DNA of 64,000 nt from Nitrospirota bacterium (GTDB lineage: Bacteria > Nitrospirota > UBA9217): the NCBI GenBank assembly GCA_963740085.1, contig CAVUCU010000001.1, positions 1,440,001 to 1,504,000 on the forward strand, given 5' to 3'. Below the pieces are notes generated by a model. The model ran no database searches, was not told the DNA's origin, and saw only the letters and a program-made list of their open reading frames with translations. Positions 2,366-64,000 of the stretch are shown here, one piece after another. A program made the position numbers and the translations under genes. Every line of letters starts with the position of its first letter. Position 1 is the first letter of the stretch.

Positions 2366-4249
2366 TTATTCAGGTTGTTTCCTGCGAAGCTCAATTGCCT
2401 GTTTCACGTAATTTCTTTTTATTGAAATCGCGGGAACTCTGAAATCGAACCACGCCTTAACCGAAAGATCCGTGCCGATGCCATGCATAAAGTTGTACAC
2501 CGCTTTGTTCAGGCCCTGCGCATAGCGGTGAGGGTTGCAGCCGACACTATCTTCGTGAAGAAGATCATTGTTGGCAAACCTCCCAACAGAATGATCAACG
2601 ATCCTGCAGTGATATTTTTCCGGATGTCTTCCCACATCGCTGTGTACCGTCGCGGTAAACACGTGCCAGAATGCGGATTGTATCAGGCCCTCTTTAAAAA
2701 ACTGCCGTACGATCTCCAGGGCATCGATGGTTTCCTGTTCGGTTTGTGTCGGGAAACCATACATCAGATACGCGTGCACCATGACGCCAGCATCGCTGAA
2801 ATTCCGGCACGCCTGAGCGGCCTGACGAATGGTCACCCCCTTGTTCATTAACTTCAACAGTCTGTCCGAGGCCGCTTCCAGACCTCCCGTTACTGCGATG
2901 CAACCCGAGGCAGCCAGAAGTCTGCACAGGTCTCTGGTAAAGGCACGTTCAAAGCGGATATTTGCCCACCAGGAGATAGTGATGCCTCTTCTCAGCAACT
3001 CCATGGCCAGTGCACGCAGAACCGCGGGCGGCGCGGCTTCATCGACAAAATGAAATCCGGTTTGTCCTGTTTGGGCGATCACCCGCTCAATCCTGTCAAC
3101 CAGCACGCCGGCCGGAGCACTGTCGTAGCGTTTTATATAATCGAGCGTCGTATCGCAGAATGAACATTGATGCCAGTAGCAACCATGTGCAACGGTAAGC
3201 TTGTTCCACCGTCCGTCGGACCATAGGCGGTGCATGGGATTGGCGATTTCTATGAGAGAGAGATACTTATCCAAAAGGAGATCTGAATAATCCGGGCAAC
3301 CGGTCTCTGCGTGGGAGGGATCCTGTTCCGTATCATCATTCATGAATTTCACTCGATCATCAATTCGTATGAATGTTCGTTTGAGGCCGGCCGTCTTTTT
3401 TTCTCCTTGAAGACATTTCAAAATATTCAATAAGGGAAGTTCGCCGTCGTCCAGGGTAATAAAATCGACATAGTTAAAGATCGCGGGTTCGGAAAGGGCA
3501 CGAAGTTCCGTATTAACAAATCCGCCACCCGCTGCGATCTTGATATGTGGATGGTCCTTCTTGATGAATTGACAGCATTTCAGACCGGCGTAGACATTTC
3601 CGGGAAAGGGAAGCGTAATGCAGACGACATCTGGTCGATTCAGCTCAATATGGCCCTTCAGCAATTCATGCATCCAGGTCTCAATGATATTTTCGGGTTG
3701 TTGCAAGGCCTTCTCGATCGGATCAAAAGAATGAGCGGACATTCCAAGCTTTTCAGCGTACCGGCTGAATCCAAAATACGGAGTTACGGCATCTTTGATA
3801 AGGTCGCCGACATCTTCGATATATCGTGTGGCCAGGAACCGGGCCCTGTCATTCGCTCCGATGTTCCCAAATGACCATTCCAGATCGGGCAATTGATCGA
3901 ATCGTGATGCCCGCGGCAGAAAATGATCGGAGCCGATGCGTTGGGCGAGCGTATTGTCCCGGTACTGCAGGAAATTCATCACCTGGTCAATCGTTTGCAC
4001 GTAGGAGCGTTCGTTATGAATTATCTTGAGCGAATTGGGGGACAACTGTGTCGTTCCGTTTTTCACAACAGCGAACAGTGCTTCAAAACCCGGGTGGGAA
4101 AATATTTTATTTACCAGTTCAATGCCGAGATCGACCTGTAATACCTGATACCCGTGCAATTTCAAAAAGCCTTTCAAATAAGGCGTTGCCGGATATGGGG
4201 TGTTGAGCTGGGTAAACGGCGGCGTTATGAGGAGTATTTTTTTTTGCAT
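2366..4249 (-). CDS. Cobalamin-binding radical SAM protein
   Basis: N-terminal ITPPFTQLNTPYPA, B12-binding-like GGGFVN segment, GCYWHQCSFC Fe-S motif, FHFVDEA, GGLE, MYGFPTQT. Confidence 0.85.
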   Translation of the reverse strand: MQKKILLITPPFTQLNTPYPATPYLKGFLKLHGYQVLQVDLGIELVNKIFSHPGFEALFAVVKNGTTQLSPNSLKIIHNERSYVQTIDQVMNFLQYRDNTLAQRIGSDHFLPRASRFDQLPDLEWSFGNIGANDRARFLATRYIEDVGDLIKDAVTPYFGFSRYAEKLGMSAHSFDPIEKALQQPENIIETWMHELLKGHIELNRPDVVCITLPFPGNVYAGLKCCQFIKKDHPHIKIAAGGGFVNTELRALSEPAIFNYVDFITLDDGELPLLNILKCLQGEKKTAGLKRTFIRIDDRVKFMNDDTEQDPSHAETGCPDYSDLLLDKYLSLIEIANPMHRLWSDGRWNKLTVAHGCYWHQCSFCDTTLDYIKRYDSAPAGVLVDRIERVIAQTGQTGFHFVDEAAPPAVLRALAMELLRRGITISWWANIRFERAFTRDLCRLLAASGCIAVTGGLEAASDRLLKLMNKGVTIRQAAQACRNFSDAGVMVHAYLMYGFPTQTEQETIDALEIVRQFFKEGLIQSAFWHVFTATVHSDVGRHPEKYHCRIVDHSVGRFANNDLLHEDSVGCNPHRYAQGLNKAVYNFMHGIGTDLSVKAWFDFRVPAISIKRNYVKQAIELRRKQPE

Positions 4250-55227: not shown

Positions 55228-56835
55228 ATGGATTATTCAGACGAAATAAACAAGCGGCGGACCTTCGCCATCATCAGCCACCCTGACGCGGGAAAGACCA
55301 CGCTGACGGAGAAGTTTCTGCTTTTCGGCGGGGCGATCCAGGTGGCCGGCGCGGTCAAGTCGAACAAGATCAGGAAGAGCACGTCCTCGGACTTCATGGA
55401 CATCGAGCGCCAGCGCGGCATCTCGGTGGCAACGTCGGTCATGGGCTTCGACTATAACGGACTCAAGATCAATCTGCTCGACACGCCCGGTCATAAGGAT
55501 TTTGCCGAGGACACTTATCGCACACTGACCGCGGTGGACAGCGTTATCCTCATCATTGACTGCGTCAAGGGCGTGGAGGAACAGACCCTCCGGCTTATGG
55601 AAGTCTGCCGCATGCGCAAAACGCCCGTCATCATCTTCGTGAACAAGCTCGACCGCGAGGGCAAGCATCCCTTCGAGCTTCTGGACGAGCTCGAAACAAA
55701 GCTGAACATAAAGGTCCAGCCGCTCTCATGGCCCATCAGCATGGGAACCTCCTTCAAGGGCGTTTACAATCTCTACAACAACAGCCTCTATCTCTTCCGG
55801 CCCGGCGGCGTCAAGGTCGCGGAGGACATACTCGAGATCCAGGGCATCGGCGACCCCGTCCTTGACCAGCAGCTCGGCGACTATGCGGTAAAACTCCGTG
55901 AGGACGTTGAGTTGATCGAGGGCACGCACAATCCCTTTGACGTAAATGCGTACCTGCGCGGCGACCTTGCACCGGTCTTCTTCGGCAGCGCCATCAACAA
56001 CTTCGGCGTGAAGGAACTGCTCGACACCTTCACCGAGATCGCGCCCACACCCGGCAGCAGGCCCACCGACCAGCGGGTCGTCAACGCCGATGAGAAGGAC
56101 TTCACGGGCTTCGTGTTCAAGATCCACGCGAACCTGGACCCCAGGCATCGCGACCGCATCGCCTTTATCCGCGTCTGCTCGGGCAAGTTCGAGCGGAACA
56201 AGATGTTCCTTCATGTGCGCCTGGGCAAACAGATCCGGTTTACCAGCCCGGCGAGTTTCCTGGGGGCGCGGAAGAGCATCGTGGACGAGGCCTTTCCCGG
56301 CGATGTGATCGGACTGTATGATACCGGCAATTTCAAGATCGGTGACACGCTCACGGAAGGCGAGAAGCTCATGTTCCAGGGCATCCCTACCTTCTCGCCC
56401 GAGGTGTTCAAGGAACTCGTGAACCTCGACCCGTCGAAATCGAAACAGCTGGCAAAGGGCATCGAGCAGCTTACCGACGAGGGCGTGGCCCAGCTCTTCA
56501 CCCAGCAGCAGGGCAACCGCAGGATCGTCGGTACGGTGGGTCAGCTACAGTTCGATGTGCTGCAGTACCGGCTGGAGCACGAGTACAACGCGACCTGCAG
56601 GTTCGATCCGATGAAGATCTTCAAGGCGTGCTGGATCACTGCGAGCGACGAAAAGGAAATGGACAAGTTCTGCAGATTCAAATCGGACCGCATCGCCACG
56701 GACAAGGACGGCAATATCGTGTTCCTCGCGGAATCGGATTGGGTGTTGCGAAATATGATCGAGGCCTACCCCGATATCAAATTCCATTTTACTTCTGAGT
56801 TCAAGCGGGAAATGCAGAAGACCAGCGCAACGTAA
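55228..56835 (+). CDS. prfC: Peptide chain release factor 3
   Basis: [49 protein letters not shown]. Confidence 0.97.
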
Positions 56836-57345
56836 TTACCATCATTTAAATCAATCCTACACCGCAGAGCGCGCAGAGAACTTCTTGAAGTAGAACTTCG
56901 GTGCCTCCGCGTCCTCGTCCCGCCTCTCCGCCTTTTAATTATCAGCTCCGTTTGTTTTTTCTTCTTCTAACCGCAAAGTTCACAAAGTTTATTACTATCT
57001 AAAAGACTGGGTCTTCCGGGTTTTGTGTGGGTCGCTTTTATCCGTCCTTAAATCAGCCCATGAGGAGGGAATCGTTTTTTTTGCACATCCCCTTCGTGTC
57101 CTGAACGACATTTTTGGCACCCGTCTAAGGCCGCGTCCGCTCGCCCGCGCAAACTCGGCCTGCGCCCTCAGACACCGTGCTCTTGCGATAACGCTGGTGC
57201 AGGCAGTGCAACGCGTTCGCCCTGCGGGATGCTTCCTTAGACATAATGGCTGACAGTTACAAAAATAGTGACCTGCCCCTTGCAACGTGGGTTATACTTG
57301 AGAACCAGGTTCTCAAATACAGAGCCACAACCAAGGAGGCAGGTC

Positions 57346-58455
57346 GTGAAACATTCTATCATTTTTGTCGGACTCGATGTACACAAAGATTCTATTGATA
57401 TCGCTCTCGCAGATGACGGCAGAGACGGTGAAGTCAGATCCTACGGCGCTATTGGGGGAGATCTGACTTCACTGGATAAAGCGATCCGCAAATTTCGCCG
57501 TTCTGGTGTTGAACTTCGCTTCGTGTATGAAGCCGGCCCCTGCGGTTATGAAATCTACCGGCATTTAACCGCGCAGGGGTTCCATTGCGATGTTATCGCT
57601 CCCTCGATGACGCCAATACGGAGCGGAGACCGGATCAAAACCGACCGGCGCGATGCCGTTACTCTGGCCCGGCTGTATCGTGCAGGTGAACTGACCCCGG
57701 TTTATGTCCCCCGAGAGGACGATGAGGCCATGCGAGACCTCGGCCGGGGCCGGGAAGACGCAGTAAATGCCAGCCGGAAAGCCCGACAACGGTTAAGCGC
57801 CTTTGTCCTTCGGCATGGTTTCCGGTTTGTGAGCAGAAAAGCATGGAGCGTCGCTCACCTGCGGTGGCTTGCGGATATCAAGATGTCGCATCCGGCACAA
57901 CAGATCACGCTCCAGGAGTACATCCACAGCGTCGAAGAGTGCTCAGAACGGGTAGACCGGTTGACCGAACAGATATTGAAACTGCTTCCATCATGGCGAA
58001 TGGCCCCGGTGGTGACTGCTCTTCAAGGTCTTCGCGGCGTAGCTACTGTGGTTGCCGTTACCATGGTGGTTGAAATAGGCGACCTGAGGCGGTTTGAGAA
58101 CCCCCGGCAGCTCATGGCATATCTGGGCCTTGTGCCGTCCGAGAATTCCAGTGGCCAGACCACAAAACGCGGCGGCATTACCAAAACGGGTAATGGACAT
58201 GCCAGACGAGCTCTGATTGAAGCGGCACAGGCATACAGCTTTCAGGCCAGAGTCAGCAGGGAACTCCGGAAACGTCAAGAGGGCCTGACGCGTGAGATCA
58301 AGGAAATCTCCTGGAAAGCTCAAGTACGGCTCTGCGGCCGGTTCCGGAAGCTTACTGCCAGAGGAAAGAACCGAAACCGAACTGTAACGGCAATTGCACG
58401 GGAGCTTTCCGGCTTTATGTGGGCCATTGCTAAGGCAGTACCCATGCCGGCGTAG
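57346..58455 (+). CDS. IS110 family DEDD recombinase/transposase
   Basis: GGAGG + GTG; GLDVH, YEAGPCG, KTDRRDA, GLVPSENSSG, GGITKTGN. Confidence 0.95.
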   Translation: MKHSIIFVGLDVHKDSIDIALADDGRDGEVRSYGAIGGDLTSLDKAIRKFRRSGVELRFVYEAGPCGYEIYRHLTAQGFHCDVIAPSMTPIRSGDRIKTDRRDAVTLARLYRAGELTPVYVPREDDEAMRDLGRGREDAVNASRKARQRLSAFVLRHGFRFVSRKAWSVAHLRWLADIKMSHPAQQITLQEYIHSVEECSERVDRLTEQILKLLPSWRMAPVVTALQGLRGVATVVAVTMVVEIGDLRRFENPRQLMAYLGLVPSENSSGQTTKRGGITKTGNGHARRALIEAAQAYSFQARVSRELRKRQEGLTREIKEISWKAQVRLCGRFRKLTARGKNRNRTVTAIARELSGFMWAIAKAVPMPA

Positions 58456-58719
58456 GGCCAGGACCAAAAGCTTTCAAAGAACAAGACCGCAATTAAGGAG
58501 AACAGCCAAGAACAAAAAAACAACTATCCAGGGTATCACCAGAGATGCGACCACGATCTGGAGAACTCTCGTTTGGCCTAGGGAATAAGGCTCTTGCCGA
58601 ACTTCCGTTCTTAGAGCGAGACAGCTCCGCGATGAAGACAAGTCATGCGGTCAAACCCGCGAATATCAGAGTGATCAATCGTCGCCGTACAGGTCCCATC
58701 TCTGATTATGTCCTGGACC
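58456..58719 (+). ncRNA. Putative bridge/seek RNA in the right non-coding end
   Basis: Stem-internal loop-stem structure carrying segments matching the target (58574-58580, 58608-58614) and the donor junction (58663-58670, 58705-58712); ends approximate. Confidence 0.75.
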
Positions 58720-58886
58720 AAAAACTAACAGCATTCGCTTTATATAACGAGGCATTTGAATCTATTTTCTTATTGACAACTGTCAGCCATATCAGGCCAG
58801 GACGGGTGCCAAAAATATCGTAAGGGCCGCTCCGGGGACGTGCGGGGTTGGGGTAAATCTTTTTGATTCTGACTTTCCCCGGCGCC

Positions 58887-59069
58887 GGGCAGCTCTGACC
58901 GAAAGACGCGCATAGCAATGCTGCACAGACCGTAGTTGCGAGAACACGACAAGGCAGACACGGCCGAACCCTTTTTAAAGGGTGAGGGTGGAGTGCTGCC
59001 AGACCTGCATATCAGTGCGGAGATACTGTATATATCCGGCATGCTGCGCGGCCGAGCGATGAGCTGCCC
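58887..59069 (+). repeat. 183-nt structured cassette, copy Y
   Basis: Closing stem GGGCAGCTC/GAGCTGCCC; homologues at 61200-61429 (-) and 61472-61654 (+). Confidence 0.75.
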
Positions 59070-59235
59070 AAAAAAACAATGCACACGTTGGACAAGTGCC
59101 AACTAGATATCCTTAATTAAGTGATCCACATAAAAGTCAGAAGAACCAAAAGACTTTTTCTCTGCGTCCTCTGCGGTAAAATAGCCTTCTCGTTTATCCT
59201 AAAACTATTTACATTTTATAGTCGTCGTCTCGATA

Positions 59236-59271
59236 AAACAAAAAAAGCCCCCCGCCCAAAGACGGGGAGCT
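59236..59271 (-). terminator. Intrinsic terminator of trpB2
   Basis: AGCTCCCCGTC-TTT-GGGCGGGGGGCT followed by a T-tract on the minus strand. Confidence 0.75.
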
Positions 59272-59292
59272 CAAGAAAGGTTAGAGCTGACG

Positions 59293-60645
59293 TTAGATCT
59301 TGGGAAGCTTTGCGAGGGCCTCTTTGATCTTCGCCGCCGGATACTCATAGTCCTTAAGCTTGCCGTCATGATAATCCGCATATGCCTGGAGATCGAGGTA
59401 CCCGTGGCCGCTCAGGTTGAAGAGGATCGTCCTTTGTTTGCCTTCCTGCTTTGCCTGGAGCGCTTCATCGATAGCACCGCGGATCGCGTGTGCGCTTTCG
59501 GGGGCGGGAATGATCCCTTCGGTGCTGGCAAACTGCACCGCGGCTTCGAACACCGGTATTTGGTTGTACGCCTTGGCCTCGATCAGCTTGTCATGATAGA
59601 GTTGAGATATGATCGGTGAGTCGCCGTGGTAGCGCAGCCCTCCTGCATGAATGCCCGGGGGCATGAAGTCATGGCCGAGGGTATACATCGTCATCAGGGG
59701 AGTCAGTCCGGCAACATCGCCGAAGTCGTACCGAAACTCGCCCTTGGTGAGCGTGGGACAGGACGCGGGCTCGATGGCTACGATGCGAACCTTCTTGCCC
59801 TCGATCTTGTCATGTACGAATGGAAAGCTGATGCCGGACAGATTGCTTCCGCCGCCACAGCAGCCGATCACGACATCGGGGTAGTCTCCGGCGATCTCCA
59901 TCTGTTTCTTGGCCTCGAGCCCGATCACGGTCTGGTGCAGGCATACGTGGTTCAGCACCGAGCCGAGGGCATAGTTGGTATCATCATGCGTGGCAGCATC
60001 TTCCACGGCCTCGGATATGGCAAGGCCGAGGCTGCCCGGGTTGTTCGGGTCAAGTTCAAGGGCCTTCCTTCCCGAATTCGTGACCGTCGAGGGACTCGCG
60101 TGAACCGTGGCACCCCATGTTTCCATCATCATCCTGCGGTAGGGTTTCTGGCCATAGCTCACCTTCACCATGTAGACCGTGACATCGAGCCCGAAAAGCT
60201 TGCCCGCGAGGGCCATGGATGAACCCCACTGGCCGGCACCGGTCTCGGTGGAGATGCGCTTGATACCCGCCTTTTTATTATAATAAGCCTGGGGGATGGC
60301 GGTATTCGGCTTGTGGCTGCCCGCAGGGCTCACGCCTTCATATTTATAGTAGATCTTTGCCGGAGTGCCGAGCGCCTTTTCGAGCCGGTGCGCGCGAAAG
60401 AGCGGCGAGGGCCTCCAGAGAGAATAGATGTCCATAACTTCTTCCGGGATGTCGATCCACCGCTCCTGGCTCACCTCCTGCAAAATCAGATCCATCGGAA
60501 ATATCGGGGTGAGATCCTGCGGTCCTATCGGCTGATGCGTGCCCGGATGGAGCGGCGGCTTGGGCTTGTTCGGCATGTCCGCCATGATGTTGTACCACTT
60601 GGTGGGGATCTCTTTGTCGGAAAGAAGAATCTTGGTCTGTCTCAT
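59293..60645 (-). CDS. trpB2: TrpB2-type tryptophan synthase beta (PLP enzyme)
   Basis: [44 protein letters not shown]. Confidence 0.93.
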
Positions 60646-60774
60646 ACATCCTCCTCGATAATCAATTATAGTCTTGCTGCACATCCGGCACGTTCGTAAT
60701 AGTATACTATTCTGTGGACTTTCTCAACGATATTTTCTTCAGATACGCTGGTGAGAATCGCCTGCAAAACCACA

Positions 60775-61050
60775 CTACATTCCTATGGAGAACATGCTGT
60801 CCAGATCGTGGCGGGAGTGAACGCGGAAGGCGATGAGCGTCTCTGACTTGATGATACCGTCGACCTTGAGCATGTGGCCTGTCACCAGCTCGGCCATCTG
60901 ATCGTTGTCTCGCGCTCGAATGACAACCGCGAGATCGTATCTGCCGGCGACCGAATAGACCTCGGAAACGCCGTTCATCTCCGCAAGCATCTCCGCTACG
61001 GCATTCACCTTGCTCCTCTCAACATTCAACAGGACCAGTGCAGTGACCAT
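60775..61050 (-). CDS. Stand-alone Lrp/AsnC ligand-binding domain protein
   Basis: GVSEVYSVAGRYDL...SETLIAF; no HTH. Confidence 0.88.
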   Translation of the reverse strand: MVTALVLLNVERSKVNAVAEMLAEMNGVSEVYSVAGRYDLAVVIRARDNDQMAELVTGHMLKVDGIIKSETLIAFRVHSRHDLDSMFSIGM

Positions 61051-61199
61051 GTTTCAGCCTCCCCGCTAATTTATTTTGTTCTTCTGACTTTTCTGTGGGT
61101 CACTTAATTGCATGTATCGCTTTTTATTCTTCATGAACAATCTGTTTCCTGAATGTTATCTAAGTTGGCGCTTGTCCCAGGTGTGCATTGATTTTTTTT

Positions 61200-61429
61200 G
61201 GGCAGCTCATCACTCGGCCACGCAGCATGCGGGGAAGATGTACAGTATCTCCACCCTGATATGCAGGACTCGCATCACTCCACCCTCACCCTTTAAAAAG
61301 GGTTCGGCCGCCTGCACCCAGCGTTTACGAGTGCTACGTCGCGAGTGCAGGGCGTGTCTGCCTTGTCGTGTTCTCGCAACTACGATCTGTGCAGCATTGC
61401 TATGCGTGTCTCTCACGTCAGAGCTACCC
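61200..61429 (-). repeat. Structured cassette copy Y' (with a 44-bp insert)
   Basis: Close inverted copy of 58887-59069. Confidence 0.8.
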
Positions 61430-61471
61430 GGCGCAGGGGAACGGCAGAACTCTTTGCCTTTCCAGAACCCC

Positions 61472-61654
61472 CTGCATCCCATGAACAGGTTCGCGCACAA
61501 GCATGAGCATGCTGACACGATCAAAACAAGCACAAAGCCAGGCAGACACGGCCGAGCCCGTTCCCTTGGGCGAGGGGAAGTGCTGCGATGCTCGAAAGGC
61601 TTGTTATCAGTACCGGCAATCATGCCCTGCGCGGAGCTGTGAACTGGGGTGCAG
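61472..61654 (+). repeat. 183-nt structured cassette, divergent copy Z
   Basis: Shares AGGCAGACACGGCCGA and the CGCGCA/TGCGCG stem with Y; closing stem CTGCATCCC/GGGGTGCAG. Confidence 0.65.
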
Positions 61655-61770
61655 AAAAAAGAGAATCCGACATTTGCTGCATTAAAACAGATAAAAGCGA
61701 CCCACACAAAACCCGGAAGACCCAAAAAACTCAACGTAACCACTCAGGCCGGTTGCCTTAGAGAACCGTA

Positions 61771-62688
61771 TCAGACGGATACCGAACACCGCGGATCAGG
61801 GGCGGTCAGGTCCCCGGAAAGGACCAGTGCCTGGGCCGGACAACCACCGTGGCATTGTCCATGAAACTCACAGGCCCGCTGCTGGCAGGCATTTCCGCGA
61901 AAGGTCCTGAAGAATACAAGCGCCTGGCTCCGCCAGATGGATTCGAAAGGATCGGTCAGGATGTTTCCCAGGAAGAATTCTTTTCTGCCGAAAAAAAGAT
62001 TGCAGGGATAAACCGACCCGTCCGGCATGATCCCAAGCTTCGTAGTGCCCGCGGGACATCTGACCTGCGAGAGCTCCGGAAGGTTTTTTGTATCAGGGAC
62101 GAAGCCGGAGCAGTAAACCGTATCGATAGGGTGCGGCGCGAACGACTGCGCGACAACCCTCATGAAGCGCGGAAACGGAACTGTTTCGCGGAGGTCCGCG
62201 CCGTCCAGGGCGTCACGATAGATCAGGTAGAACTTTTTCGGCTTCAGGGCGAGGATCTCGTCGATCATGCCGCGGTCCAGTCCGGCATGAAAGACCGACT
62301 TGATGACCGGCTTATGCCTTTCAATGAAGCCGCGGACCTGCTCAAGCGTATTACGGTCATTGATCGAGACCCCGGCCGAGACCGCCTCGCCGATCCGCAC
62401 GATTTCCGCGAGGGTCTGCAGGTCTGATCCGTTCGTACTGACGTTGACCGAGAATCCGCGCTCAACAGCCTCCCCGATCAACTTCACGATGTCCGGATGC
62501 ATTGTCGGCTCGCCGCCGATGATATCGAGTGTACCCACCGATATTCGCGCAAGCACATCGAGCATCTCCCTGAAGGCGGCGGGAGACATGTCCTCGACCG
62601 AAGGTAGGGACCGGTTAAAGCAGAACTCGCAGGCCCGGTTGCACCGCAGCGTGGGGTAGAATTGTATGTAGTCGGGACCGGTTCTCAT
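61771..62688 (-). CDS. Radical SAM/SPASM domain protein
   Basis: CNRACEFC, GGEP, CPAG..IMPDGSVYPC, Cys-rich C-terminus ending CHGGC. Confidence 0.9.
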   Translation of the reverse strand: MRTGPDYIQFYPTLRCNRACEFCFNRSLPSVEDMSPAAFREMLDVLARISVGTLDIIGGEPTMHPDIVKLIGEAVERGFSVNVSTNGSDLQTLAEIVRIGEAVSAGVSINDRNTLEQVRGFIERHKPVIKSVFHAGLDRGMIDEILALKPKKFYLIYRDALDGADLRETVPFPRFMRVVAQSFAPHPIDTVYCSGFVPDTKNLPELSQVRCPAGTTKLGIMPDGSVYPCNLFFGRKEFFLGNILTDPFESIWRSQALVFFRTFRGNACQQRACEFHGQCHGGCPAQALVLSGDLTAPDPRCSVSV

Positions 62689-62744
62689 AAGAGTATTCTT
62701 GTCACGGATCTACACGATCCGTGCTAATCGGCGTCCATCCGTGG

Positions 62745-63566
62745 TTACATGCCGTAGGTCCTTCCGTTCTTTTTGATGAACCCTTCTTTCGCGAGCAATA
62801 CGAGATTCGTCCTCACCCGCTCTTTGTCCATGCCGGTCTTTGCTGCAACTTGACCCAGCGTGAGGGGCGATTCTTTTACGAGAACCTTGATGATCCTGCC
62901 GCGGATCTGCCTGTTTGAATTCTCGAAAGGGCTCTGTTTTATATAGTGCGCGCTTCTCCGATTAGGATTGACCCGGTTTCTCTTGAGCATTGCCCCGTAA
63001 TCCATGAGTGCATTGTACCATTTCCTCGGATTCCCGGCATCCATCGTCTGTTCAACGAGCGGAGTTATTTCCGAATCCTGGATGTTCTCCCGGTCATGAA
63101 AGAACTCATGGATATATACCCGCCGGATGTTCGTGTCCATGAACACGACCGGCTCGTTAAAGGCAAATGCCGTGACCGCCCCCGCCGTATACCTCCCGAT
63201 CCCCGGAAGGGCGAGGAGCTTTTCAGGCTCTGACGGAAGCTTGCCTCGATGTTCTGAAACGACCAGTTGAGCGAGCGCGCGAAGCGCGAGAGCGCGGCGA
63301 TTGTACCCCAGTCCCTGCCACTGGGCGAGCAGCGTATGGAGCGGCGCGTCGGCAAGCGACGGGAAATCCGGGAACATCTTGATGAACCCCGCGTATTTTT
63401 CGATCACCCGTTCGACCTGCGTCTGCTGCAGCATGATCTCGGACACGAGGACCCGGTAGGGGTCCCTGGTCTTCCGCCAGGGGAGGTCGCGGCCGTGTTG
63501 GTCGTAATAGGCGTGGACCTTTTTTCGGAATACGCGGACCTGTACGGGAGTAAGGCGTTTTTGCAT
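62745..63566 (-). CDS. A/G-specific adenine glycosylase (MutY-like, HhH-GPD); start uncertain
   Basis: RDLPWR, VSEIMLQQTQV, WQGLGYNRRA, LPGIGRYTA, DTNIRR. Confidence 0.88.
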   Translation of the reverse strand: MQKRLTPVQVRVFRKKVHAYYDQHGRDLPWRKTRDPYRVLVSEIMLQQTQVERVIEKYAGFIKMFPDFPSLADAPLHTLLAQWQGLGYNRRALALRALAQLVVSEHRGKLPSEPEKLLALPGIGRYTAGAVTAFAFNEPVVFMDTNIRRVYIHEFFHDRENIQDSEITPLVEQTMDAGNPRKWYNALMDYGAMLKRNRVNPNRRSAHYIKQSPFENSNRQIRGRIIKVLVKESPLTLGQVAAKTGMDKERVRTNLVLLAKEGFIKKNGRTYGM

Positions 63567-63629
63567 GATAAGCCTGTGCAAGACCGGATCTTTCTTGCCG
63601 GTTAGCGCTCTGACAGTCAATTGGACTGG

Positions 63630-64000
63630 TTACCTTTTTTTGAGCAAGACATACAGCGCGCCGAGGCCGCCGTCGCACTGACGCGCGGTGACAAACGCTA
63701 TGATGTTCTTGCGGTAGCGGCCGGACAGTCGTTTGACAACCGCATTTTTGATTCGGGCGCCCTTGGTCGAGCGAAGCCCCCGGCCGTGAATGACCTTGAT
63801 GCAGCTCAATCCCCTTTTGTATGACTCCTGGAAAAAGGATTCAAGTTCCTCTTCCGCCTCGGGGACCGTGCAGCCATGGAGATCAATAAAGGCCTGGACC
63901 GAAACGTGTCCTTCATGAAGTTTCGCTATGAGTTCATCGCCATACTCCGGATTCGTCCACTCGACGTACTCCTGGGTATCCGGCAGGTGCATCGGCCGCT
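63630..64000 (-). CDS. Smr/MutS2 C-terminal domain endonuclease, 5' end outside window
   Basis: IDLHG, VIHGRG, GGLGALYVLL. Confidence 0.9.
   Translation of the reverse strand, partial: RPMHLPDTQEYVEWTNPEYGDELIAKLHEGHVSVQAFIDLHGCTVPEAEEELESFFQESYKRGLSCIKVIHGRGLRSTKGARIKNAVVKRLSGRYRKNIIAFVTARQCDGGLGALYVLLKKR

Follow-up and report, generated by a model that had tools for sequence, protein, structure and literature searches.

What are the long hairpins that recur in a 64,000-nucleotide stretch of a Nitrospirota genome, and does their fold serve an RNA, a single-stranded DNA, or neither? The stretch, hereafter termed the window, comprises positions 1,440,001 to 1,504,000 of contig CAVUCU010000001.1 (assembly GCA_963740085.1). 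A preliminary description of the window reported three hairpins, Y, Y' and Z, and proposed that they represent an undescribed structured noncoding RNA or single-stranded DNA element that is kept for its fold and was spread inside ISL3-type transposon ends lacking a transposase. Our analysis finds that Y and Z, together with a further type that we call X, are three paralogous types of one lineage-specific, noncoding, multicopy hairpin module. The module has a conserved foot and apex, its fold is specific to one strand, and we tentatively interpret it as a selfish structured RNA.

Hairpins Y, Y' and Z

The window belongs to a genome of 3.46 Mb in seven contigs that is 98.5% complete (G000 in the coordinates below). 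Hairpin Y occupies positions 58887-59069 of the plus strand (183 nucleotides) and is followed by seven A residues at 59070-59076. Hairpin Z, also on the plus strand and also 183 nucleotides long, occupies 61472-61654 and is followed by six A residues at 61655-61660, so the A-tract reported after the stem is present in both. Hairpin Y' (61200-61429, 230 nucleotides) lies on the minus strand, where the T run at 61192-61199 reads as an A run. It corresponds to Y with a palindromic insert of ~44-47 nucleotides (61311-61354), similar to repetitive extragenic palindromic (REP) sequences, which interrupts the middle of a 16-nucleotide core. This core, AGGCAGACACGGCCGA, has exactly two occurrences in the window, at 58952 in Y and 61540 in Z, and was correctly described as common to these two hairpins. 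A repeat finder detects the relationship among the hairpins as inverted arms (58867-59150 versus 61074-61449, 88-94% complementary) and as a direct repeat of Y and Z around the common core (48 nucleotides, 73% identity).

Predicted folds were compared with those of 100 dinucleotide shuffles per sequence. Y folds with -73.6 kcal/mol (z -3.5; opposite strand, z -2.95), Y' with -93.0 kcal/mol (z -2.8; opposite strand, z -1.8) and Z with -87.7 kcal/mol (z -6.7; opposite strand, z -2.7). All three are thus found at the positions and on the strands first proposed and fold as described. The paired changes that had been quoted are likewise legible: CGCGCA/TGCGCG in Y reads CACGCA/TGCGTG in Y', ACCC/GGGT in Y reads GCCC/GGGC in Z, and all three versions of the closing stem can be followed.

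Other particulars do not extend to the family. The equal length of Y and Z is real as measured but coincidental, because units of the family range from ~164 to 210 nucleotides. The tandem G.A internal loop exists in Y and Z but is not a fixed trait, as Watson-Crick TC/GA takes its place in 10 of 31 Y copies. The proposed side hairpin (GCAT-AGCA-ATGC changing to AGCATG-AG-CATGCT) is not a family feature; alignments instead pair GCATG over a long range with CATGC on the 3' side.

Conserved architecture and compensatory changes

Four features are common to all settings in which the hairpins occur: a 20-nucleotide upstream box (consensus TTTGCCTTTCCAGARCCCC), the foot of the stem, the A run, and a word resembling AGGATCGTGAC. 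The foot comprises ~22 base pairs with an invariant UGA/GAAC internal loop, and the apical hairpin carries the 16-nucleotide core in Y and in most Z sequences. A covariance model, R1, was built from 34 Z sequences by using the fold of the window's Z as the structure. It scores 209.2 bits at this Z and matches the window's Y end to end with 50.6 bits. Its 26 matches in the genome consist of 15 Z (141-209 bits), 8 full-length Y (41-53 bits) and 3 partial hairpins. Because a model built from Z matches Y end to end, the two types share one architecture.

Covariation was counted in 79 distinct sequences, among which only 36 pairs of the foot and apex can be aligned across subfamilies. These pairs are formed in 94.6% of cells, and two-sided changes are found at 33 of the 36 (208 cells), a level that none of 500 shuffles reaches. 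When the partner is slid by 1-3 columns, at most 38 cells show two-sided changes. Such switches are also seen in a structure-free MAFFT alignment, in which, for instance, pair 10/199 is A-U in 23 sequences and G-C in 11. The reported maintenance of pairing through compensatory change therefore holds for the foot and apex.

The interior behaves differently. Columns of the middle 40 + 40 nucleotides cannot be aligned to one structure across subfamilies, and the 5' and 3' halves of the middle are only weakly complementary (median z -1.38, with 16 of 75 copies below -2). On both counts, a single model structure for the middle was rejected. The rod shape that had been suggested fits the window's Z but not the family in general. 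The module therefore has a foot and an apex that are conserved, with a loose middle between them that is specific to each subfamily, and is not a uniform rod.

Distribution and settings

Of the 64 genomes of the order, 25 have matches to R1, representing 12 of its 19 genera, at 0-37 matches per genome; three of the eight genomes of the window's own genus have none. In a sample of the phylum, 10 of 27 other genomes of the window's family have matches, and none are found in 123 genomes of 21 other Nitrospirota families. The exact foot pattern occurs in 45 stretches of a species collection, all in metagenome-assembled genomes labeled Nitrospirota or Nitrospirae bacterium. It has no matches in viral contigs, and a phage origin was rejected on this ground.

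The hairpins occur in several settings. About a dozen copies of a ~650-base-pair unit are present in the window's genome, each with an L end, a Y-type hairpin on the minus strand, a 42-nucleotide center, a Z-type hairpin on the plus strand and an R end. An alignment of 12 such copies shows insertions and deletions of 1, 2, 5, 47 and 72 nucleotides. Two genomes from elsewhere in the order (G004 and G005) carry tandem arrays of Z-type hairpins in the same orientation, with a period of ~428 nucleotides and three or four units each (locus L021, 6047-7516 of G004:C3; locus L023, 2181-3257 of G005:C11). In these arrays the hairpin alternates with a 245-nucleotide spacer that holds a further hairpin of ~100 nucleotides and a perfect 13-base-pair stem, GTCACCTTTCTTG...CAAGAAAGGTGAC. 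The same stem also adjoins X-type copies in the window's genome (C1:2950-3000 and C4:499870). Three other genomes (G052, G054 and G018) have hairpins free of ISL3 ends, both singly and as inverted doublets. The likeness of their flanks is lost ~10-20 nucleotides past the A run, and neither a target duplication nor sharp ends can be defined for the doublets. Upstream of many copies lies the 3' part of an X-type hairpin on the opposite strand, so that hairpins generally occur as diverging pairs, in which any two types may be combined. The ISL3 carrier is accordingly one setting among several, as hairpins of other genera lack ISL3 ends.

Some variants of the module were noted in passing. The REP-like repeat of ~44-47 nucleotides sits at the same point of the core in one Y subfamily, which has five copies in the window's genome, and also stands alone. 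Further sites in this genome are C1:3190-3229, 3357-3396, 309452-309488 and 933942-933980; C4:308722-308762, 499561-499600 and 499724-499763; and C7:252136-252175. In other genera of the family this repeat is often the only part of a query that matches. At G000:C4:732875-735013 (locus L041), a gene for an FGGY-family sugar kinase lies between two same-orientation Y-type copies that both have the REP-like insert. A shortened form of Z also exists in sequencing contigs, from run X20 (an RNA library) and run X4 (labeled "DNA?"), that join position 61485 to 61630 through 16 other letters. This mini-Z keeps the foot and has a short stem-loop in place of 144 interior nucleotides.

Selection and strand preference

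Variants were classified in three Z subfamilies of 28, 25 and 20 distinct sequences. Those present in at least two copies keep the affected pair in 41 cases and break it in 7, whereas variants found in one copy break the pair in 58 cases and keep it in 25. Because shared variants keep pairs and one-copy variants break them, the fold matters in multiplying lineages while inserted copies decay. The earlier claim that the element is kept for its fold thus stands for the lineages that spread and fails for each individual copy. The pattern of kept and broken pairs is that of mobile repeats rather than of host genes.

The fold also belongs specifically to one strand, the one read outward from the center of each pair. 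Throughout the family, G.U pairs number 150 and A.C pairs 31; without the two columns in which G.U is the commonest or second-commonest state, the numbers are 62 and 29. Two foot pairs of Z and five pairs of Y are G.U in the majority of sequences. Of 77 distinct copies, 63 fold more stably as the outward strand, and the mean advantage of that strand is 5.8 kcal/mol. The preliminary remark that G.U pairs favor one strand is borne out by these counts.

Several comparisons bear on whether this strand acts as RNA or DNA. With RNA energies the median z of the outward strand is -4.96, and with DNA energies it is -3.19; RNA energies give the lower z in 23 of 26 copies tested (every third of the 77). 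For the window's Z the z scores are -6.7 and -2.8, respectively. Contigs from RNA libraries (X19 and X20) cover sequence like that of Y, Y' and Z, although these contigs lack strand and ends and may derive from DNA carry-over. The size of the module, which resembles that of small RNAs, and the same-orientation tandem arrays also lean toward RNA. For the single-stranded form, we therefore lean to RNA over DNA.

ISL3-type carrier elements

The window contains two nonautonomous elements with ISL3-type ends. Element 1 (57009-59147, 2139 base pairs including a nested insertion sequence) has the order R end, X on the minus strand, Y on the plus strand, and L end. It is flanked by an 8-base-pair duplication, AAAAGACT, at 57001-57008 and 59148-59155. 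Its R-type terminal inverted repeat, GGGTCTTCCGGGTTTTGTGTGGGTC (57009-57033, plus strand), has one mismatch to the end of a 1378-base-pair ISL3 element of relatives, and its L-type repeat is at 59123-59147 on the minus strand. Element 2 (61077-61723, 647 base pairs) has the order L end, Y' on the minus strand, center, Z on the plus strand, and R end, and is without a target duplication. Its L-type repeat (61077-61101, plus strand) begins with T rather than G, and its R-type repeat is at 61699-61723 on the minus strand. The 42-nucleotide center between the diverging hairpins Y' and Z (61430-61471) carries the conserved box that precedes each hairpin, with the consensus given above before Z.

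The carrier ends are 25-nucleotide inverted repeats. Five copies in the genome have both ends; four are 624-683 base pairs long, and the fifth is the 2139-base-pair element with its nested insertion sequence. An AT-rich 8-base-pair target duplication is perfect in three of these five, matches at seven of eight positions in one, and is lacking at 61077-61723. Among relatives, five genomes (G018, G065, G014, G052 and G069) carry 1378-base-pair elements that encode DDE_Tnp_ISL3, and 8-base-pair duplications flank four of five such autonomous elements inspected. Compared with the ends of these elements, the R end of the carriers differs at 1 of 25 bases and the L end at 3-5, or up to 6 in one element. 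Likeness detected by BLAST is confined to ~20-32 nucleotides at the termini, and the interior is therefore not a deleted insertion sequence. No match to the ISL3 transposase (PF01610) is found in the window's genome.

The carriers are thus true ISL3-type miniature inverted-repeat transposable elements (MITEs): they are small and multicopy, have ISL3-like ends and 8-base-pair duplications, and encode no transposase of their own. In this genome they need an ISL3 transposase from elsewhere. Given the short terminal match and the duplications, the hairpins are their cargo, which agrees with the proposal that they travel within transposase-less ISL3-type ends. ISL3 was rejected as the general driver of the hairpins, as 8 of 25 hairpin-bearing genomes encode its transposase, compared with 17 of 39 genomes that lack hairpins. 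The missing duplication of element 2 hints at a rearrangement there; an inversion between Y and Y' was considered as the explanation and discarded because the flanks do not fit.

Between the two elements, 59293-61050 of the minus strand holds a PALP-domain gene (tryptophan-synthase-beta-like, 463 amino acids) and a gene with an AsnC-type ligand-binding domain (91 amino acids). Immediately upstream of the AsnC-type gene, and on its strand, are Y' and the L end of element 2; the MITE may therefore supply or disturb the promoter of this gene. A weak terminator-like site, with a stem and then a T run when read inward from the L end, is present at 61168-61199 of the plus strand, and its mirror image follows Y at 59070-59104. 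It was seen only in a scan of the consensus and could stop transcription that enters the element.

Hairpin X and a nested IS1111-type element

The X type, which the preliminary description did not include, is represented in element 1 by a minus-strand hairpin in two parts. The left part is at 57083-57240 and adjoins a T run (57075-57082), which on the minus strand reads as the A run; the right part is at 58796-58843, with the foot GGGGACGTGC at 58834-58843. The interruption is an insertion sequence of IS1111 type (IS110 family) on the plus strand (57241-58795, 1555 base pairs). When rebuilt without it, X folds with -124.9 kcal/mol (286 nucleotides including flanks). Uninterrupted copies of X are present at G000:C1:3004-3270 and C4:499312-499640, and because they serve as empty sites, they fix the ends of the nested element at 57241 and 58795.

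The nested element is complete, and its transposase gene (57268-58455; Pfam Transposase_20, 3.5e-23, and DEDD_Tnp_IS110, 1.2e-14) is the only copy in this genome. Subterminal inverted repeats of 13 base pairs lie at 57246-57258 and 58778-58790, and each junction carries AG. Elements of this family use noncoding RNAs called bridge RNAs or seekRNAs, and whether Y could be such an RNA for the neighboring transposase was considered. Since the element ends at 58795, Y, which begins 91 nucleotides away at 58887, is outside it and forms part of the repeat around it, and this reading was rejected. The nested element is no part of the hairpin family. It has a noncoding right end of 340 nucleotides, in which 58574-58585 is complementary to the target junction at 11 of 12 bases; a 7-nucleotide exact match was computed and extended to 11 of 12 by reading the sequence. 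This segment is a candidate guide segment of the element's own seekRNA or bridge RNA.

Coding potential, known RNA families and partner enzymes

Two open reading frames overlie the hairpins of element 2, at 61112-61642 of the plus strand and 61210-61743 of the minus strand (176 and 177 amino acids). Neither has a Pfam match, and a coding reading was rejected on this basis and because copies differ by the insertions and deletions given above. The reading frames are spurious, and gene finders will probably annotate them as hypothetical proteins.

A search of 8 kb (56000-64000) against Rfam returned no match at E<=1 and four far-subthreshold matches at E<=10; the best matches in Rfam 15 score 16.8 bits (gathering threshold 43) and 15.0 bits (gathering threshold 80). 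Nor did a limited literature search find a published description of the family, so the suggestion that the element is undescribed is upheld. The resemblance to 6S RNA that had been raised from size and shape is not: the hairpins do not match the 6S model, and the genome's canonical 6S RNA gene (RF00013) is at G000:C4:73917-74095 with 104.9 bits. Both 6S RNA and any other known RNA family were rejected as identities.

Several partner systems were also considered and set aside. A retro-copy with an A tail would fit neither the lack of an RVT_1 match in the window's genome nor the conserved sequence that extends past the A run. A link to TnpB and omega RNA was dropped, as this genome has no Cas12f1-like_TNB match. 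RAYT or other Y1 transposases show no association with the hairpins: Y1_Tnp (PF01797) is almost universal in the order, occurring in 20 of 25 hairpin-bearing genomes and in 34 of the 39 others, and none of the four Y1 genes of the window's genome is beside a hairpin. The RAYT-like protein of this genome is found in 44 of the 64 genomes of the order but not in G001 or G018, which have 37 and 21 hairpin matches. Sigma-54 and sigma-70 readings of the upstream box were rejected, as the spacing, judged by eye, is unfit for sigma-54 and a scan at the hairpins was empty. A search for a gene between hairpin arms, or for an enzyme within hairpin-rich regions, found only ordinary genes. These encode UDG, a HAD hydrolase, an F420 oxidoreductase, DUF4388/GAF proteins, a T2SSE ATPase, ADH, ChaN, an FGGY kinase and dienelactone hydrolase.

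Comparison with described systems

The nearest described kind of element is the REPIN (REP doublet forming a hairpin). The original account (Bertels and Rainey 2011, PMC3116915) describes two highly conserved inverted ends and a less conserved spacer, for which both length and capacity to pair are important, together with frequent compensatory changes, doublets and ordered clusters. It does not decide between single-stranded DNA and mRNA as the relevant form. The hairpins share the inverted conserved ends, pairing spacer, doublets and clusters. Like REP sequences and REPINs they are noncoding, multicopy and extragenic, with single copies that look like decaying remnants. However, at ~164-210 nucleotides they are two to three times longer and not short units; their asymmetric internal loop is conserved, as is the apex of most members; they lack an association with a Y1 or RAYT gene; and in the window's genome they travel as cargo of ISL3 ends, which generate 8-base-pair duplications.

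As ISL3-derived MITEs, the carriers have the terminal repeats of the relatives' resident ISL3, 8-base-pair duplications and no transposase. They differ in their interior, which is made up of two structured modules found also apart from ISL3 ends.

Another parallel is ssr9 of ISPpu9, an insertion sequence of the IS110 family. According to its description (PMC12288879), ssr9 is a small-RNA gene beside the transposase with additional stand-alone copies, and its authors regard it as selfish and as using the machinery of the insertion sequence. The likeness is to a proposed selfish small-RNA passenger of an insertion sequence, whereas transcription of the hairpins is putative. The carrier of the hairpins is of ISL3 type, not IS110, and Y lies outside the window's IS1111-type element. 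Bridge RNAs and seekRNAs of IS110 and IS1111 elements resemble the hairpins as structured noncoding RNAs of ~180 nucleotides tied to a mobile element, and an IS1111-type element is beside Y. In contrast, the hairpins lie outside the insertion sequence, occur also in genomes and places without one, and form one long hairpin. 6S RNA has a similar length (~180 nucleotides) and a long closing stem, and the hairpins differ from it in that they are unmatched by its model, multicopy, mobile and neutrally decaying.

Interpretation

Our leading reading, which we hold tentatively, is that the hairpins are a selfish structured RNA module. The outward strand would act as an RNA of ~185 nucleotides that is produced when the element is transcribed, whether by read-through or from an unrecognized promoter, and the foot loop and apex would be putative binding sites. 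Such an RNA would act for the element and not for each host locus, as a selfish small-RNA gene that borrows the transposition machinery of others, in the manner proposed for ssr9. A bolder form of this idea is a long shot: the hairpins would form a new class of selfish RNA genes that are active in their own right (for example as guide-like, decoy or catalytic RNAs built around the UGA/GAAC foot loop and the 16-nucleotide core), that hop between ISL3 MITEs, bare doublets and arrays, and that serve as landing pads for the IS1111-type element in X and the REP-like insert in Y'.

Several observations weigh against the leading reading. A scan found neither a sigma-70-like promoter nor a hairpin-plus-U terminator at any hairpin, and the stem is followed by a run of A rather than of U. 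The mutation asymmetry expected of transcription is not significant (C>T 33 versus G>A 32, p 0.32). In X the two strands do not differ in stability (-124.9 versus -126.2 kcal/mol). G.T is also the mildest mismatch in DNA, and strand bias alone is therefore no proof of RNA. The covariation figures lean toward structure because the alignment is fitted to a model and its rows are related. The replacement of the tandem G.A loop by TC/GA involves two adjacent changes on one arm and looks like DNA-level copying from the other arm. Finally, one-copy variants not only break pairs more often than they keep them (58 versus 25) but are about equally dense in paired and unpaired columns. Their ratio is about what neutral decay gives, by a rough estimate, rather than a computed control, that 25-35% of pairs would be kept through G.U.

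The hairpins could instead be REPIN-like mobile DNA, in which one strand forms a single-stranded DNA hairpin whose foot, loop and boxes are cut by a strand-specific HUH/Y1 transposase or an attC-like recombinase. The doublet or single hairpin would then be the replicative unit, and ISL3 ends would have captured one doublet secondarily. The layout matches the REPIN description (PMC3116915), and such a DNA would account for the conserved flanks outside the stem, the patchy copy numbers, the hairpins without ISL3 ends in other genera and the absence of promoters and terminators from the hairpins in our scan. The apex tolerates insertions, the mini form with 16 nucleotides in place of 144 is present in the DNA run as well, the GA to TC change perfects the stem, and neutral decay of single copies beside spreading lineages that keep the fold is equally expected. 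This reading nevertheless strikes us as rather unlikely. Neither the Y1_Tnp nor the RAYT-like distribution reveals a partner enzyme, and nothing but ordinary genes lies among the arrays. REPINs are far shorter than the hairpins, with 71 base pairs between the two conserved 16-mers of the GI type (PMC3116915). As DNA, the stem would be weakened by several positions fixed as G.T, and its fold stands out less under DNA energies; bare doublets have no definable target duplication or sharp ends.

Neutral decay, the poorly paired middle, the GA to TC change as templated correction and the lack of expression signals at the hairpins would all be explained as well if the fold had no function. The hairpins would then be old foldback palindromes left over from inverted ends, with pairing maintained by descent, gene conversion between copies and template switching within quasi-palindromes, and with spread solely by ISL3 ends or unequal crossing-over. 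ISL3 elements have DDE transposases and should need only their terminal repeats to transpose, which also suits this explanation. It is improbable, however, because shared variants keep pairs by 41 to 7 and two-sided changes occur at 33 of 36 pairs across genera. Templated correction should erase the asymmetric UGA/GAAC loop, and yet this loop and the flanking boxes are invariant. An excess of G.U over A.C on one strand is unexpected for double-stranded or symmetric processes. Template switching appears too infrequent to explain the pairing, since compensated changes confined to a single copy number eight in all. Least probable of the four, and in our judgment very unlikely, is a host regulatory small RNA in many copies, selected at each locus as a 6S-like decoy of RNA polymerase or a base-pairing RNA. 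The size and stable one-strand fold, the core common to Y and Z and the same-orientation arrays would suit such an RNA. However, canonical 6S RNA is encoded elsewhere, copies decay neutrally, close relatives have 0-37 copies with none in three of eight genomes of the genus, and promoters and terminators were not found at the hairpins. A contig of run X4 over the right flank of element 2 stops at the R end, and loose ends at 61729 enter unlike sequence; this hints at presence/absence variation, with the MITE perhaps absent there. A selfish structured RNA thus ranks first, followed by REPIN-like single-stranded DNA, a fold without function and a host small RNA, and the remaining probability falls to something else.

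Most bacterial MITEs fold only through their mutually inverted ends. Here, transposon ends of ~25 nucleotides enclose two independent hairpin modules whose loops are conserved, whose helices covary and whose fold prefers one strand. In practical terms, this unannotated repeat family will confuse gene calling in these Nitrospirota genomes. With its foot, apex and flanking boxes, the module also offers a defined test bed for deciding whether such repeats act as RNA or as single-stranded DNA. More generally, the family is a clean natural case of structured noncoding cargo selected at the level of the spreading lineage and not of the host locus.

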